Below, one piece after another: positions 1 to 12,886 of a stretch of 12,886 nucleotides of DNA (the first letter of the stretch is position 1; each line of letters opens with the position of its first letter). A model generated the notes under the pieces. That model worked only from the letters and a program-made list of their open reading frames with translations, had not been told where the DNA came from and did not search any database. This stretch comes from Planctomycetota bacterium. Lineage in GTDB: Bacteria > Planctomycetota > Planctomycetia > Pirellulales > Lacipirellulaceae. The DNA is taken from NCBI GenBank assembly GCA_039190745.1, contig JBCCXZ010000086.1:1-12886 (forward strand), read 5' to 3'. Both the position numbers and the translations under genes were made by a program.

Positions 1-116
1 AATCCTTCAAAGTAAGGGCTATTACCTTCCAAAGCAGGTTGTGTTGCGGTACATAGCACCAAGCTCATATTGTACTGCTGACACATTCCTTGCAAAACAC
101 TAACAATTGGTTTGAG
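1..116 (-). pseudogene. cas3: Internal fragment of a CRISPR-associated helicase Cas3 (type I-C-like), 5'-truncated, running off the left edge of the window
   Basis: Hand translation of the minus strand from 116 to 3 gives LKPIVSVLQGMCQQYNMSLVLCTATQPALEGNSPYFEG. CTATQP (53-36) is SF2 helicase motif III in the 'VLCTATQPAL' form I recall from type I-C Cas3, preceded by the usual 'LKPI..VL' helix that follows DEAQ. GC is 48/116 (41%) versus 45/64 (70%) for 117-180. Upstream in frame there is no DEAQ, and a TAG occurs at 152-150. Confidence 0.72.
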
Positions 117-150
117 CCGCCGCTGAACCAGACCCCGCGGGGCCGCGCAC

Positions 151-156
151 TATAGT
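151..156 (+). promoter_or_regulatory. Possible -10 element (TATAGT) for dksA
   Basis: A 5/6 match to TATAAT in an isolated AT patch within GC-rich DNA, 220 nt before the dksA ATG. No convincing -35. Confidence 0.3.
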
Positions 157-375
157 TAGTTTGCGGCCGCCGAGGCACGACCTCCGGCGGCCCCAAGTGC
201 GTACAGAGAAAGCGTCAACAGAGAAGGCCGCCCGAACACGCCCGGAGGGATACCCGGCAACCGCGGAGCGGCAGATGCAGCAGAGAGGCACCGACGATTC
301 CAACCACCGGACCCCGCGTCACAACGGGCCCTCAAGGACGGCAGGAATCGGCCGAGCAATCGAAAGCCCAAAACG

Positions 376-816
376 ATGGCCAGAAAAGACTCGATCCTGA
401 AACTCCGCGAAATGCTGGTCACCCGCCGCGACGCCCTCCGCAAGGCGCTCGCCGGAGACCTCAGCATGCTCCAATCGCTGCGCGAGCAGATCGGCAGCGA
501 CGTGGTCGACGCCGCGCTCGACGCGGCCCAGGACGAGATTAGCTCCAAGCTCGCCGAGGTGGAGAGCCGCGAGCTGGCCAACATCGAGATCGCTCTGGAA
601 CGCATCAAAGACGGCACCTACGGCCAGTGCGAAATCTGCGGCGGCAAGATCCCGCTCGCCCGGCTCAACGCCCTGCCCTACGCCACCATGTGCATCGAGT
701 GCCAGCGCCTCTCCGAGACCGGCGGCGGCCCCGGCGGGGCCGGCGGCGACTGGAGCCGCGTCATCGACACCGGCATCGACACCGAGGTCTCGTTCTCCGA
801 CCTCGAAGCCCAGTAA
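376..816 (+). CDS. dksA: DksA/TraR-family RNA polymerase-binding transcription factor (C4 zinc finger)
   Basis: Coiled-coil tip DxxDxA (DVVDAA), 'ALERIKDGTYGQCEIC', 'IPLARLNALPYATMCIECQ' with four Zn-binding cysteines, and strong GC3 codon bias. Confidence 0.92.
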   Translation: MARKDSILKLREMLVTRRDALRKALAGDLSMLQSLREQIGSDVVDAALDAAQDEISSKLAEVESRELANIEIALERIKDGTYGQCEICGGKIPLARLNALPYATMCIECQRLSETGGGPGGAGGDWSRVIDTGIDTEVSFSDLEAQ

Positions 817-2258: not shown

Positions 2259-3500
2259 ATGCCGCCATCTTTCACAGGATTCGCCGTCTTTGATCTCGAA
2301 ACGACCGGTCTCAGTATCCGCAGACATGATCGGATCATCGAGATTGGTGTCGTTCGTTTCGACGAGGACTTTGACCTGGTCGAAGAGTGGGAAACTCTGA
2401 TCAACCCCGAAAGAGACATCGGTGCTTCAGAAATACACGGGCTAACGGCGAGCGACCTTCGCGATGCCCCAACGTTTGCTGAGCTCTTGGTCGACATCTG
2501 GCACCGTTTCGAAGGAGCTATTCCGGTTGCTCATAATCTTGCGTTTGACCGCAGATTCTTGCTTGCAGAATTTCAACGTGCGGGAGTAGAGATTGAACAA
2601 TTTGATGGACTATGCACTTGCAAACTCGTCGAAGAGCTTGATTTGTCAACACCGAGTGCGCGACTTGAGGATGTGTGCCGCTCCCTTGGTCTTCCGATAG
2701 GAGATGCTCACAGTGCTGGACATGATGCAAAGATGGCGGCCGAGATACTTAAGCGCATTGAGAATCCAGCTTCGTTAGTTGAGGACTTAGTCCCCCCATC
2801 TTGTCCGTCCCTTTGGAAGCGTGGTGCTACACCGTTAGGAGTTACTCGTCAGAAGGCGCGAGAGACTCCAATGCGATCGGCGCTGCATACGCTAGCTCGA
2901 AGAGTAGAGCGAGAATCCGTTTCTGATGGGGCTAGCCGTGGGCAGCTGGATGAGTATCTATTGATCCTTGATCGTGTACTTGACGATCGGATTATTGAAG
3001 AGGCAGAGATTGAGGAATTGTCGTTCTTCGCAGACGAATGCGGCATTCAGCCTTCAGAGCTAGATACGCTACACGAACGCTACGTCTCAGCGCTAGCGGC
3101 TGCAGCTCTCGGTGACGGAGTTGTTACGGATGCCGAGCGTAGAGATCTGTATCGTGTATCCGATCTGCTCGGAGTTTCCCGGAGCAAAGCGGAGTCGTTG
3201 TTGGAAGTCGATCAGCTGCCTAGCGAATTTGAAACAGAAGACCTATCCGGCCTGACGGTGTGCTTCACGGGAACATCGCGGTGCCGAATCGACGGAGAAC
3301 TACTCAAACGGGACCAGCTGGAAGCGCTGGCTGAGTCATTCGGGCTAGTTCCCAAAAGGGGCGTGAGCAAGAAGCTCGATCTGGCTGTGCTCGCAGACCC
3401 AGACTCAATGTCTGGAAAGGCAAAGAAGGCGCGTGAGTACGGTGTACGAATAATGGCTGAGCGTGTGTTCTGGCGTAAGTTGGGTATTGATGTCGGCTGA
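2259..3500 (+). CDS. DEDDh 3'-5' exonuclease (DnaQ/epsilon-like) fused to a TerB-like helical region and a C-terminal BRCT domain; low-GC gene
   Basis: ExoI DLETTG, ExoII HNLAFD, ExoIII HSAGHDA. Two TerB-like acidic repeats (VLDDRIIEEAEIEEL, ALGDGVVTDAERRDL). BRCT motifs VCFTG, GVSKKLDLAV, SGKAKKAREYGV and 'VFW'. Hand-counted lines 2521-2580 (45% GC) and 2881-2940 (57%) versus 72% at 1381-1440. Confidence 0.88.
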   Translation: MPPSFTGFAVFDLETTGLSIRRHDRIIEIGVVRFDEDFDLVEEWETLINPERDIGASEIHGLTASDLRDAPTFAELLVDIWHRFEGAIPVAHNLAFDRRFLLAEFQRAGVEIEQFDGLCTCKLVEELDLSTPSARLEDVCRSLGLPIGDAHSAGHDAKMAAEILKRIENPASLVEDLVPPSCPSLWKRGATPLGVTRQKARETPMRSALHTLARRVERESVSDGASRGQLDEYLLILDRVLDDRIIEEAEIEELSFFADECGIQPSELDTLHERYVSALAAAALGDGVVTDAERRDLYRVSDLLGVSRSKAESLLEVDQLPSEFETEDLSGLTVCFTGTSRCRIDGELLKRDQLEALAESFGLVPKRGVSKKLDLAVLADPDSMSGKAKKAREYGVRIMAERVFWRKLGIDVG

Positions 3501-4625: not shown

Positions 4626-4648
4626 TTTGGCAGGCGTCATGATCTCTT

Positions 4649-4719
4649 GTAGGAGGCCTCTCCGAGGCCGATTCCGGTCCCTTAGCAAAAGCGAAATCGG
4701 GCTCGGAGAGCCCTCCTAA
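4649..4719. repeat. REPIN-like element: two inverted 25-nt GTAG-type REP units with a 21-nt spacer
   Basis: Left unit 4649-4673 is GTAGGAGGCCTCTCCGAGGCCGATT. Right unit 4695-4719 reverse-complements to TTAGGAGGGCTCTCCGAGCCCGATT. A 5' GTAG followed by a hairpin is the established layout of RAYT-associated REPs. Confidence 0.78.
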
Positions 4720-6739: not shown

Positions 6740-8917
6740 TTACCGGGCCTTGGCGATGTTCCGCTCGCGTAGCAGGTTGAGGTAGTCCACCGCGATCGCC
6801 ATCACCTCGTCGTTGTAAGGCGTGCTCTCGAACACCGGCTTGTCTTCGTCCTGCATGTCTTCGAAGACCTCTTCTTGGTCCTTCTCGGTGTTCACCTCTT
6901 CACGCTCGGCGAGGAACTTCTCTTTGTTGAGCGTCACGGTCGGGTCTTCCTTGCGCTCCAGGTACTTCTCGATCGCCTGGCGCTCGTCCTGGAAGTACTC
7001 GGCTTCGGCCGTTCGCACGTCGGAGCGTCGGCGCAGCTCCTGGATCACCTGCGGCGAGGCCCAGGGGTAGTTGCGGTGCGGCAGCGGACGCACCTGGTCG
7101 AACGCCATCGCGTAGTCGAGGTCGGCCTCGCCCACCTCCCAGTGCGTGGTGCGCGAGGGCAGCTCGATGTCCGACACGACGCCGCGGTTCTGCGTGCTGT
7201 CCCCGCTGGGCCGGTAGAACTGCTGGATTGTCAGCTTCAGCGCGCCCATGTTCTGCCCGCCGCGGATCGGAAGCAGCACGTCGCCCAGGTCGAACAGCTG
7301 CTGCACCGTGCCCTTGCCGTGCGTCGACTGGTCGCCGACGATAATCCCCCGGCCGTAGTCCTGGATCGCCCCGGCGAAGATCTCGCTGGCGCTGGCGCTG
7401 AAGTGGTTGATGAGCACAATCAGCGGGCCGGACCACTCCTCGCCGCGGTTGCGGTCGTCGTACGGCAGCACGCGGCCGTCGGGGCCCTTCACCTGCACCA
7501 CCGGGCCCTGGTCGATGAACAGGCCCGTCGTGTCGACCGACTCCGGCAGCGACCCGCCGCCGTTGAAACGCAGGTCCATGATCACCAGGTCGACGCCCTG
7601 CTTGTTGAAATCATTGAGGAGCCTCCGCACGTCCCGCGAGGTGCTCTTGAAGTCCTCACGGCCGGCGCGGCGGCCCTCCATGTCCATGTAGAAGCTCGGC
7701 AGGTCGATGACGCCAATCCGGTACGTGGCGCCCGCGGGGGTCTGCCCCTCGAGGACTTGACCTTCCGGTGAATCGCCCTTCCCGGCTTCCCCCGCGTCCT
7801 CAGCCGGCGCGTTGGGGTCGACGAGTCCCTTGTCGGTCAGCACCCGCTCGACGATCTCGCTGCGGGCCTCGCTGTCCTTCAGCTCGATCCGCGCCCGGGT
7901 AATGTCGTAGAACGTCATCCCCGACTTGTCTTCGGGCTTCACTTCCAGCCGGACGATCGTGCCCGGCTCGCCTCGGATGAGCTGCACGACGTCGTTGATC
8001 TTCATGTCGACGATGTCGATCAGTTCGCCGTTCGCCCCCTGGGCGACGCCGGTGATGATGTCCCCAACCGCCAGCCGGCCGTCCTTGTCGGCCGCGCCTC
8101 CGGGCACGATCCGCCGTACGATCGTCTCGCCGTACTTCGATTCCAGCGAGGCGCCGATGCCGTTCAGCTCCAGCCGCATCTGGATGTTGAAGTTCTCCAG
8201 CGTGCTGGGCGACATGTAGCTGCTGTGCGGGTCGAAGCTCTTGGTGAGCGATGACAGGAACAGTTCGAGCAGCTCGTCGTTGTCGGTCTGGTTCAGCCGG
8301 CGGCGGAGGCTGGTGTACCGCTTGGTCAGCTTCTCCTTGGCCTCGTCGGACTCCACGCCGTCCGCGTCGAACACCAGCAGCTCGTACTTCACCCGCTTCC
8401 GCCATTTCTCGTTCATCTCCGCCTCGGTGGCGGCGTAGGTCGTCTTCTCCGGGTCGGCGACGATCGTCTCGTCCACCGCGAAGTCGTGCGGCACTTCGAT
8501 CTGTGTCAACGCATAGTCCACCCGCTCATCCAGGCGTTGCAGGTAGAGGTCAAAAAGACGCTTCGCGAACCCAAGCTTTCCGCTGCGGACGTAGTCGTCG
8601 ATCTCCTTCTCACGCTCTTGGAACTGCTCGACGTCGCTCTGGTAGAAATAGAGTTTTCGGGGGTCGAGCGACTTGAGGTACATCTCGAGGGTCCGCCGAG
8701 AGACCTCGTCGTCTACCCGCATCGTCGAGAGGTGCTTCCGGTCGACCATCGCGCCGACGCTCATGGCGATGTTCCGGTCGCCGCGGGTCGGTTCGGTCGG
8801 CCGGGCTAACACCGCCGGCGCCACGATCGCCGCAGCAAGCAAAGCCAGCAGTAGGGCCGAGAACAACCGGCAGCGGGACAACCCGCGAACGACAGACCCC
8901 AGGGGAAGCAACCTCAT
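6740..8917 (-). CDS. prc: Carboxy-terminal processing (tail-specific) protease, S41A, Prc/Tsp type
   Basis: Signal peptide, long helical N-domain (LDPRKLYF, FDPHSSY), PDZ (GIGASL, GGAADKDGRL, IRGEPGT), DLRFNGGG, catalytic SASASEIF and GKGTVQ, QFYRPSGDSTQ, and an acidic C-terminal domain. Shine-Dalgarno AGAGGA lies 7 nt before the ATG. Confidence 0.94.
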   Translation of the reverse strand: MRLLPLGSVVRGLSRCRLFSALLLALLAAAIVAPAVLARPTEPTRGDRNIAMSVGAMVDRKHLSTMRVDDEVSRRTLEMYLKSLDPRKLYFYQSDVEQFQEREKEIDDYVRSGKLGFAKRLFDLYLQRLDERVDYALTQIEVPHDFAVDETIVADPEKTTYAATEAEMNEKWRKRVKYELLVFDADGVESDEAKEKLTKRYTSLRRRLNQTDNDELLELFLSSLTKSFDPHSSYMSPSTLENFNIQMRLELNGIGASLESKYGETIVRRIVPGGAADKDGRLAVGDIITGVAQGANGELIDIVDMKINDVVQLIRGEPGTIVRLEVKPEDKSGMTFYDITRARIELKDSEARSEIVERVLTDKGLVDPNAPAEDAGEAGKGDSPEGQVLEGQTPAGATYRIGVIDLPSFYMDMEGRRAGREDFKSTSRDVRRLLNDFNKQGVDLVIMDLRFNGGGSLPESVDTTGLFIDQGPVVQVKGPDGRVLPYDDRNRGEEWSGPLIVLINHFSASASEIFAGAIQDYGRGIIVGDQSTHGKGTVQQLFDLGDVLLPIRGGQNMGALKLTIQQFYRPSGDSTQNRGVVSDIELPSRTTHWEVGEADLDYAMAFDQVRPLPHRNYPWASPQVIQELRRRSDVRTAEAEYFQDERQAIEKYLERKEDPTVTLNKEKFLAEREEVNTEKDQEEVFEDMQDEDKPVFESTPYNDEVMAIAVDYLNLLRERNIAKAR

Positions 8918-10465: not shown

Positions 10466-11557
10466 TTACCCGAAGCCGGATTCGGTCGCCGCGACAAGCC
10501 GCTGGTCCCACCGGGGGAAAACCGCACGCAGGTCCAGGTGCAGTGCGTCTGAGCGTTGGCGAGCCGCCACACGCTCGTCCCGTTCCAACCGCGCCGCGGC
10601 CGACTCGACCGAGGCAGTTCCCGACTCCACGCGCACGCACCACGTCGAAGCCTCCAGGTGCAGCCCGTCCGCTTTGCACCAAGGCGAGATATCTTCCATC
10701 GGCTCGGCCGCGGCCACGCCAGGGATCGCGGCGAGCAGCGGCGCCAGCCTTTCGGCACGCTGCCGCAGGTTGTCACGCGGGGTGGTGAGCAAGCTCCAAA
10801 CGGGCAGCTTGTGGATCAGCGTCTCACGGTCTTGGTACAGCCCGAGCGTCGCTTCCAATGCCGCCAAAGCCACCCGGTTGGGCGCCGCCGCGGCGTATGC
10901 TTCGTGTTCCCGTACGCCTTGCAGCGTCGAACTGCGGCCGAACACAACCGCACAAGCCGGTCCGCCCAGCAGCCCGTCGCCAGAAACCGCCACGGCATCC
11001 GCCCTGTCTTTCAGTCGCGCTGCTACTGTCGGCACCGACGCCAGTCCGTGCGTCTCCGGATCCACCAAACCCGCGATCCATGCACGCTCGAAGTTGTCCC
11101 AACCCGCCGCCAGGCAGCACGCCTCGAGCGCTGCCCGCGAAGAGAACACCAGGGCGTCCTCGCAACCCGCCGCCGCGGCCGCCGCCTGCTCCACCGAACG
11201 CACGTAAGCACCGTCAACCATCGCGTAGTCGCTCGCCAAGACCATCACGCGATGGACCGCCGCTTCGCTGAGCGGCACGCCGTCCCACACGCCCCCGAGT
11301 ACCACGCCCGTGGCGTTCACCAACGGCTCCGCGTGTCCCCGCTCACGGAGCACACGGCGAACGAACGCTTCGGCCAAGTCGCCAACGTTGGTCGGCACGC
11401 CCTCCACGGCTCGCGCGGCTCCTGCGCGCAGCTCGTTCAAGAACCCCGTCGCCTGCTGGGCAATGGTCGATTGATTCACCCGCTCCAGCGCACGCTGCAC
11501 GGTAGGGTGTTCCAGCAGCTCGCTGAGCTGCGGCAAGTCACGGAGGGAGGGCGGCAT
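10466..11557 (-). CDS. SelA-like protein (selenocysteine synthase homolog) lacking the catalytic PLP lysine; probable pseudoenzyme
   Basis: SelA landmarks in order: LRDLPQLSELL, LVNATGVVL, AGCEDALVF, GLVDPETHGL..VPTV, SGDGLLGGP, LAALEATLGLY, LPVWSLLT, LHLDLRAV. The ORF is uninterrupted, 363 aa from ATG 11557. Confidence 0.85.
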   Translation of the reverse strand: MPPSLRDLPQLSELLEHPTVQRALERVNQSTIAQQATGFLNELRAGAARAVEGVPTNVGDLAEAFVRRVLRERGHAEPLVNATGVVLGGVWDGVPLSEAAVHRVMVLASDYAMVDGAYVRSVEQAAAAAAGCEDALVFSSRAALEACCLAAGWDNFERAWIAGLVDPETHGLASVPTVAARLKDRADAVAVSGDGLLGGPACAVVFGRSSTLQGVREHEAYAAAAPNRVALAALEATLGLYQDRETLIHKLPVWSLLTTPRDNLRQRAERLAPLLAAIPGVAAAEPMEDISPWCKADGLHLEASTWCVRVESGTASVESAAARLERDERVAARQRSDALHLDLRAVFPRWDQRLVAATESGFG

Positions 11558-11592
11558 TTCAGAGTTGCTTCCAGGGGGCTGCGATCCGACCA

Positions 11593-11622
11593 ATTATGGT
11601 GGAGGCGAGCGTTGGAAGTCTA
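11593..11622 (-). promoter_or_regulatory. Candidate promoter TAGACT-N18-CATAAT for the SelA-like gene
   Basis: Minus-strand TAGACT (11622-11617) and CATAAT (11598-11593), 35 nt before ATG 11557. Confidence 0.35.
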
Positions 11623-12617: not shown

Positions 12618-12775
12618 GGAAGATGCCCTCCGGGCGCGTGTGAGCTGGGCCGCCGCCCATAGGAGTCTGCCGGCAGCGGGCGCGGAGCTTTCCAGATCGC
12701 TCCCGGCACGTCCAGCCCGATCGGGCGAGGCACGGTCTGCCTGCGTGCTCGTCGGTCGTCGAGCGCCCAGTCAGA

Positions 12776-12804
12776 TTGCTGCTACTCTGGCAATCCCGTA
12801 GGAT
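12776..12804 (+). promoter_or_regulatory. Sigma70-like promoter TTGCTG-N17-TAGGAT pointing off the right edge
   Basis: TTGCTG 12776-12781, 17-nt spacer, TAGGAT 12799-12804. Confidence 0.45.
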
Positions 12805-12854
12805 GCCAGAGGGACTTCGGAGTCGACTTCGCACACGCCCAGGACCACCGACCG

Positions 12855-12886
12855 TTGACCAAGAAACTCGAAAACCTCGGCTTTAT
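12855..12886 (+). CDS. Possible 5' end of a divergent gene (MTKKLENLGF...), truncated by the window edge
   Basis: TTG at 12855 with AGGA at 12841-12844, downstream of the promoter candidate. Only 10 codons are visible. Confidence 0.3.
   Translation, partial: MTKKLENLGF

Follow-up and report, generated by a model that had tools for sequence, protein, structure and literature searches.

Type I-C Cas3, represented here by PDB entries 8g9u_P and 8zns_A and the PADLOC model Cas3c, is an HD nuclease fused to an SF2 helicase. Type I systems that lack Cas3 or carry a dead nuclease exist naturally, for example the transposon-associated I-F3 and I-B systems. Interspecies chimeric contigs form a second field of comparison: according to a preprint (10.64898/2026.10.15.759294), of 640 near-complete MEGAHIT MAGs built from CAMI data 444 held at least one, and marker scores miss them. 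The locus described below had been read in the original prediction as a foreign type I CRISPR-Cas locus, probably I-C, cut in the middle of cas3 upstream of dksA, with a contig chimera as the alternative. According to our analysis the alternative is very probably correct: positions 1–116 are an exact copy of part of another organism's intact cas3, joined as an artefact upstream of the host dksA.

The window, that is, the whole 12,886-nt stretch of DNA analysed, is the entire contig C86, so that position 1 is the first base of the contig and no further DNA extends leftwards. It belongs to a host assembly (G000) of 3.89 Mb in 125 contigs with 65% GC, scored as 95.47% complete and 0.11% contaminated. 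The features of its left end are collected in Table 1.

Table 1. Features at the left end of the window and the evidence on which each is based.
Feature	Position	Strand	Basis
Foreign AT-rich contig tip, 41% GC	1–116		Identical to 8632–8747 of another organism's contig (10,119 nt, run X1)
Residues 378–415 of Cas3 P0012, helicase segment after Walker B (DEVQ, 368–371)	3–116	-	Profile and protein searches
Blunt junction without microhomology	116–117		0 bases in common with the host left flank; the donor's next base differs from window position 117
Host intergenic DNA overlapping the end of contig C38, which carries the host's own left neighbour	117–258	+	141/142 identical
Single difference between C86 and C38, mid-overlap	188		G001 agrees with the window base
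Predicted GC-rich hairpin in host DNA, beside the X1 coverage hole at 151–164	161–196	+	Weak, without shuffle control
Incidental stop (TAG) of the chimeric frame, in non-coding DNA of the host	150–152	-	Translation
Host dksA/TraR-family gene, below curated cut-offs; synteny anchor	376–816	+	Profile search

The tip stands out from the host by its composition. GC is 0.414 over positions 1–116 and 0.685 over 117–316, which bears out the predicted jump at about 117, and an equally low value is reached in just 0.03% of 66,915 genome windows of 116 nt. GC3 is 0.37 in the cas3 fragment versus 0.92 in dksA and 0.95 in htrA. The 116 nt had no DNA match elsewhere in the host's own genome or in 60 relatives. 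Translation of the minus strand from 116 to 3 returned the 38 residues of the original prediction, and the frame runs into TAG at 152–150 as described there. The junction is indeed sharp: the donor contig leaves the window after position 116 and the alignment with G001, a genome of the same genus, begins exactly at 117 (91% identity over 385 nt).

In profile and protein searches with positions 1–116, Cas3 helicase matched better than anything else. The 38-residue fragment matches PADLOC Cas3c (E = 5e-7), and 10 of the 11 phmmer matches among 1.84 billion proteins are Cas3, the eleventh (P0006) being a low-complexity repeat protein; an NCBIfam search returned no family for the 38-residue piece alone. 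The predicted assignment to Cas3, probably of type I-C, thus held as I-C-like. So did the position directly after Walker B, whereas the motif itself reads DEVQ here and not DEAQ or DEAH. The fragment is an exact substring of the Cas3 protein P0012; by sequence it is a member of the Cas3 family, without being one of this genome's own genes or loci.

P0012 was retrieved by protein search (734 aa, 100% identical over the fragment, encoded on a single 10,119-nt Logan contig). This contig was found in run X1, which contains 0.80 of the sampled words of window 1–600. It has a depth of 15.8 and matches the tip over its whole length with 0 differences. Beyond the 116 nt it runs on with other DNA, whose minus-strand translation gives P0012 residues 368–377, including Walker B, in frame; the whole P0012 open reading frame fits the contig at 7674–9878. 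The original prediction had held that near-100% identity to an unrelated organism would mark the fragment as an assembly artefact, and such a match (116 of 116 nt, on the X1 contig of another organism) is what was obtained. An exact search with a 30-nt stretch of the tip gave 0 matches in genome contig and metagenome contig collections.

P0012 combines an N-terminal HD nuclease with an SF2 helicase containing Walker A and B, as is characteristic of Cas3: HD lies at residues 51–52, GGGKT at 250 and DEVQ at 368. It scores 107 bits on TIGR01596 (cas3_HD; cut-off 43) and 139 bits on TIGR01587 (cas3_core; cut-off 102), and 692 bits on Cas3c versus 389 on the best Cas3b model. With its full length, scores above both cut-offs and the best fit to Cas3c, the source gene is intact. 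The in-frame ATGs at 86–84 and 68–66, proposed as possible starts of a C-terminal Cas3 remnant, are present; they are internal methionines of P0012, and no such remnant is needed to account for them.

The donor contig extends 7.6 kb downstream of cas3. The relatives L044 (65% identity) and L039 (50%) carry cas5c, cas8c and cas7c, and at L044, the closest locus with context, cas5, cas8c and cas7 lie downstream of cas3. Among the loci compared, the closest named relative is a Leptolyngbyaceae MAG (L040, 62%), followed by other cyanobacterial MAGs at 50–51%, while identity is 47% to the best plasmid matches and 38–39% to the Cas3c of host relatives. A cyanobacterium seems a likely donor, though weakly so, as the comparison loci L038–L040 were retrieved with a different query and cas genes move. 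A second Logan protein, P0017, is identical to the donor Cas3 at 680 of 734 positions and is encoded on a 7,195-nt contig; it appears to come from a close relative of the donor that exists elsewhere.

These data bear directly on the possibility that a resident type I-C locus, lying to the left of the window, was cut within cas3, so that either a Cascade with a dead nuclease or a remnant of the Cas3 C terminus stayed behind. The fragment is Cas3c-like, 3 of 40 relatives have a type I-C Cas3, and AT-rich contigs could be missing from the bin, all of which would suit such a locus. Against it, the identical gene exists intact, with its HD domain, in another organism, and the Cas3c proteins of the relatives have just 38–39% identity to P0012. 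Cas3c was not found in G000 or in G001. A search of the host's own genome with P0012 matched only the 38–39 residues of the tip and no further cas3, and cas1 and cas7c, the two other cas genes searched for, gave 0 matches each, as did Cas3c at E ≤ 1e-20, in an assembly that is 95.5% complete. Five weak matches to TIGR01587 in the same genome all fell below the cut-off and were not taken as cas3.

A scan for 20-mers repeated at 55–85 nt flagged two contigs only (C17 and C40), both with tandem repeats and neither with an array. The scan is a weak one, arrays being often unassembled, and absence from an incomplete bin is no proof. The host flank, moreover, is accounted for by contig C38, as described below. 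The existence of an identical donor gene in intact form largely disproves the resident locus, to which we assign a next to negligible probability. Neither the truncated foreign locus of the original prediction nor a nuclease-dead Cascade in the chromosome is supported: the source gene is intact, the host flank lies on C38 and is syntenic in relatives, and neither cas1 nor cas7c was found in the host assembly.

The host's own left flank is found on C38. This contig starts with the reverse complement of window 117–258, with 141 of 142 bases identical and one difference at 188. It continues into host-like DNA with a gene of 1136 codons for a coiled-coil-rich protein, an isomerase-like gene and queF/queC/queE-like genes; the isomerase-like and que names are our reading of the sequences, not profile matches. 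C38 aligns to G001 straight across the junction. The gene order in G001 is queE, queC, queF, isomerase, large gene, dksA, htrA, and there 684 nt separate the starts of the large gene and dksA, compared with 686 nt when C38 and C86 are put together.

The same arrangement recurs in relatives, which are kin and not independent cases. The large coiled-coil gene of C38 lies within 1.5 kb upstream of dksA in 17 of 19 relative dksA loci; of the other two, one (L029, genome G015) has it 2.3 kb away and one (L016, genome G013) has in its place the isomerase gene that is next on C38. The que cluster continues in six of eight wider regions, and one of the remaining two stops at a contig end. The cas3 fragment has no match in any of the 19 loci. 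The coiled-coil gene is clearly the usual upstream neighbour of dksA. C38 may be regarded as adjoining C86.

The 1136-aa protein itself (L026:569–3979, divergent from dksA) is conserved across its family at the N- and C-terminal ends. It has no Pfam match at 1e-5 and weak SMC-like matches only; a suspected N-terminal FHA domain was likewise not found by Pfam at 1e-5.

Taken together, the tip is identical to the contig of another organism that continues differently, and the host has another, syntenic continuation. The exact donor match, the C38 flank and the synteny support the chimeric contig that the original prediction had offered as its alternative. The join itself is informative as to how such a chimera could arise. 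At the join 0 bases are common to host flank and tip, and the donor continues with a base other than that at window 117. Such a join speaks against recombination or a misjoin caused by repeats and is what a ligated library chimera would look like. We infer a single chimeric library molecule, in which a donor fragment would have been ligated to a host fragment and which would have fallen in a thinly covered, hairpin-rich intergenic stretch. The X1 contigs leave a hole at window 151–164, beside the predicted GC-rich hairpin; the hole suggests thin coverage there, for which the hairpin at 161–196 is a possible, weakly indicated cause.

A de Bruijn assembler, likely MEGAHIT with a final k of 141, would then have extended C86 along the chimeric molecule. 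Five contig pairs of the assembly overlap by exactly 141 nt at their ends, 141 being the last k in the MEGAHIT default list, and the 116-nt tip is shorter than this. C38 and C86 share no 79-, 99-, 119- or 141-mer in their overlap because the difference at 188 sits in the middle of it, and therefore no competing branch would have been present against which the tip could be pruned. This one base would have kept the paths of C38 and C86 apart; the 116-nt dead end would have escaped pruning as a tip and been binned with the host. At a junction with good support about k bases of the donor would be expected, while a dead end of 116 nt would correspond to about the content of one read.

Run X1, like all the runs found, was examined as assembled contigs, which drop rare variants, and the best 7 of 17 records were considered individually. 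Depth over window 51–100 is 15.8, which is that of the donor contig alone, and hence none of the other X1 records among the 17 bridges the junction with 31 donor-side letters. In the bin 101–150, about 3.9 depth units come from an X1 record outside the best 7 of 17. At the contig level no record was seen to cross from 117 into C38, and no bridge is evident in the depth. The X1 host contig has a depth of about 9 and shows 3 differences from the window in 1336 bases. X1 need not be the exact source strain, and it may be the sample from which the window was assembled, hence not independent. Runs X2, X17 and X18 gave no cover of window 1–250; runs X3–X16 contain 3–5% of the words and are no evidence either way.

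The X1 host contig differs from the window within dksA at 411–412 and at 435, and agrees with G001 at 411–412. Either a strain variant or an error from low coverage may thus be present in the window.

A real junction has to be weighed against the same data. In that case a minority of the host cells would have acquired donor DNA upstream of dksA by an illegitimate insertion of very recent date, and both alleles would have been assembled. Donor and host DNA do occur together in run X1, C86 and C38 differ at 188, strain-like overlaps are seen at other contig ends, and rare variants can be missing from contigs. A natural insertion is, however, poorly matched by a join that lacks microhomology, by a break inside an open reading frame with no sign of a mobile-element end, and by 100% identity to the donor. 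The tip moreover stops at 116 nt though the donor DNA runs on for 8.6 kb at higher depth, and no bridging record is evident in X1. We consider such an insertion very improbable. A shade less probable still is its more specific form, a cross-phylum, homology-free transfer in which a host subpopulation has freshly captured the DNA of a likely cyanobacterial neighbour by blunt joining. If real, the junction would have caught a transfer between distant bacteria that took place without homology.

Observations were also made at other contig ends of the assembly. The last 93 nt at the right end of C13 (L055:608–700) are AT-rich (40–44% GC) and unmatched in C58 and G001, both of which match C13 up to this tip; it is probably a second chimeric tip. 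At the right end of C114 (L054:576–700) G001 aligns over 1–575 but has no match to the last 125 nt, which are AT-rich (36–46% GC) and may be either a foreign tip or a promoter region that has diverged. For C6, whose right end is AT-rich as well, a foreign tip was rejected, the last 77 nt matching G001 at 100%. The right end of the window (12667–12886) overlaps the start of C89 at about 90% identity with gaps, and C89 is probably the right neighbour of C86.

Further observations concern the interior of the window. A dispersed, REP- or MITE-like repeat about 73 nt long, often matching on both strands (palindromic), has one copy at 4648–4716; the search gave at least 44 matches in G000 and at least 48 in G001, nearly all to the repeat. 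At 2259–3500 lies a gene for a DEDDh exonuclease that is extended at length beyond its C-terminal end. On the minus strand, positions 10466–11593 encode a SelA-like PLP-dependent protein that matches the C-terminal half of the Pfam model only.

The tip carries no biological weight, the donor Cas3 being ordinary and intact and the host locus ordinary. Its significance is one of quality control: 116 nt of foreign sequence stand at a contig end despite 95.5% completeness and 0.11% contamination, and a jump in composition that lies no more than about 150 nt from a contig end of this assembly is not to be trusted.

Compared with type I-C Cas3, the fragment aligns weakly to residues 400–431 of 8g9u_P (E = 0.01), and the window holds only 38 of 734 residues, from another organism's ordinary, intact gene. 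The likeness to the Cas3-less or nuclease-dead type I systems does not go beyond the idea of the original prediction: the host assembly yielded no array and, in the search for cas7c, no Cascade gene, while the source cas3 is a complete gene. With the chimeric contigs of the preprint (10.64898/2026.10.15.759294) the tip has in common that foreign DNA stands within a contig of a well-scored bin (here 95.47% complete, 0.11% contaminated). The preprint names repeats and conserved regions as causes of joins, whereas the present join involves no shared sequence, which would point to a chimeric molecule. The tool described there cuts only at more than 1 kb from a contig end; this join lies 116 nt from the end. 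The tip works like a known assembly error and is not a real feature of the genome.
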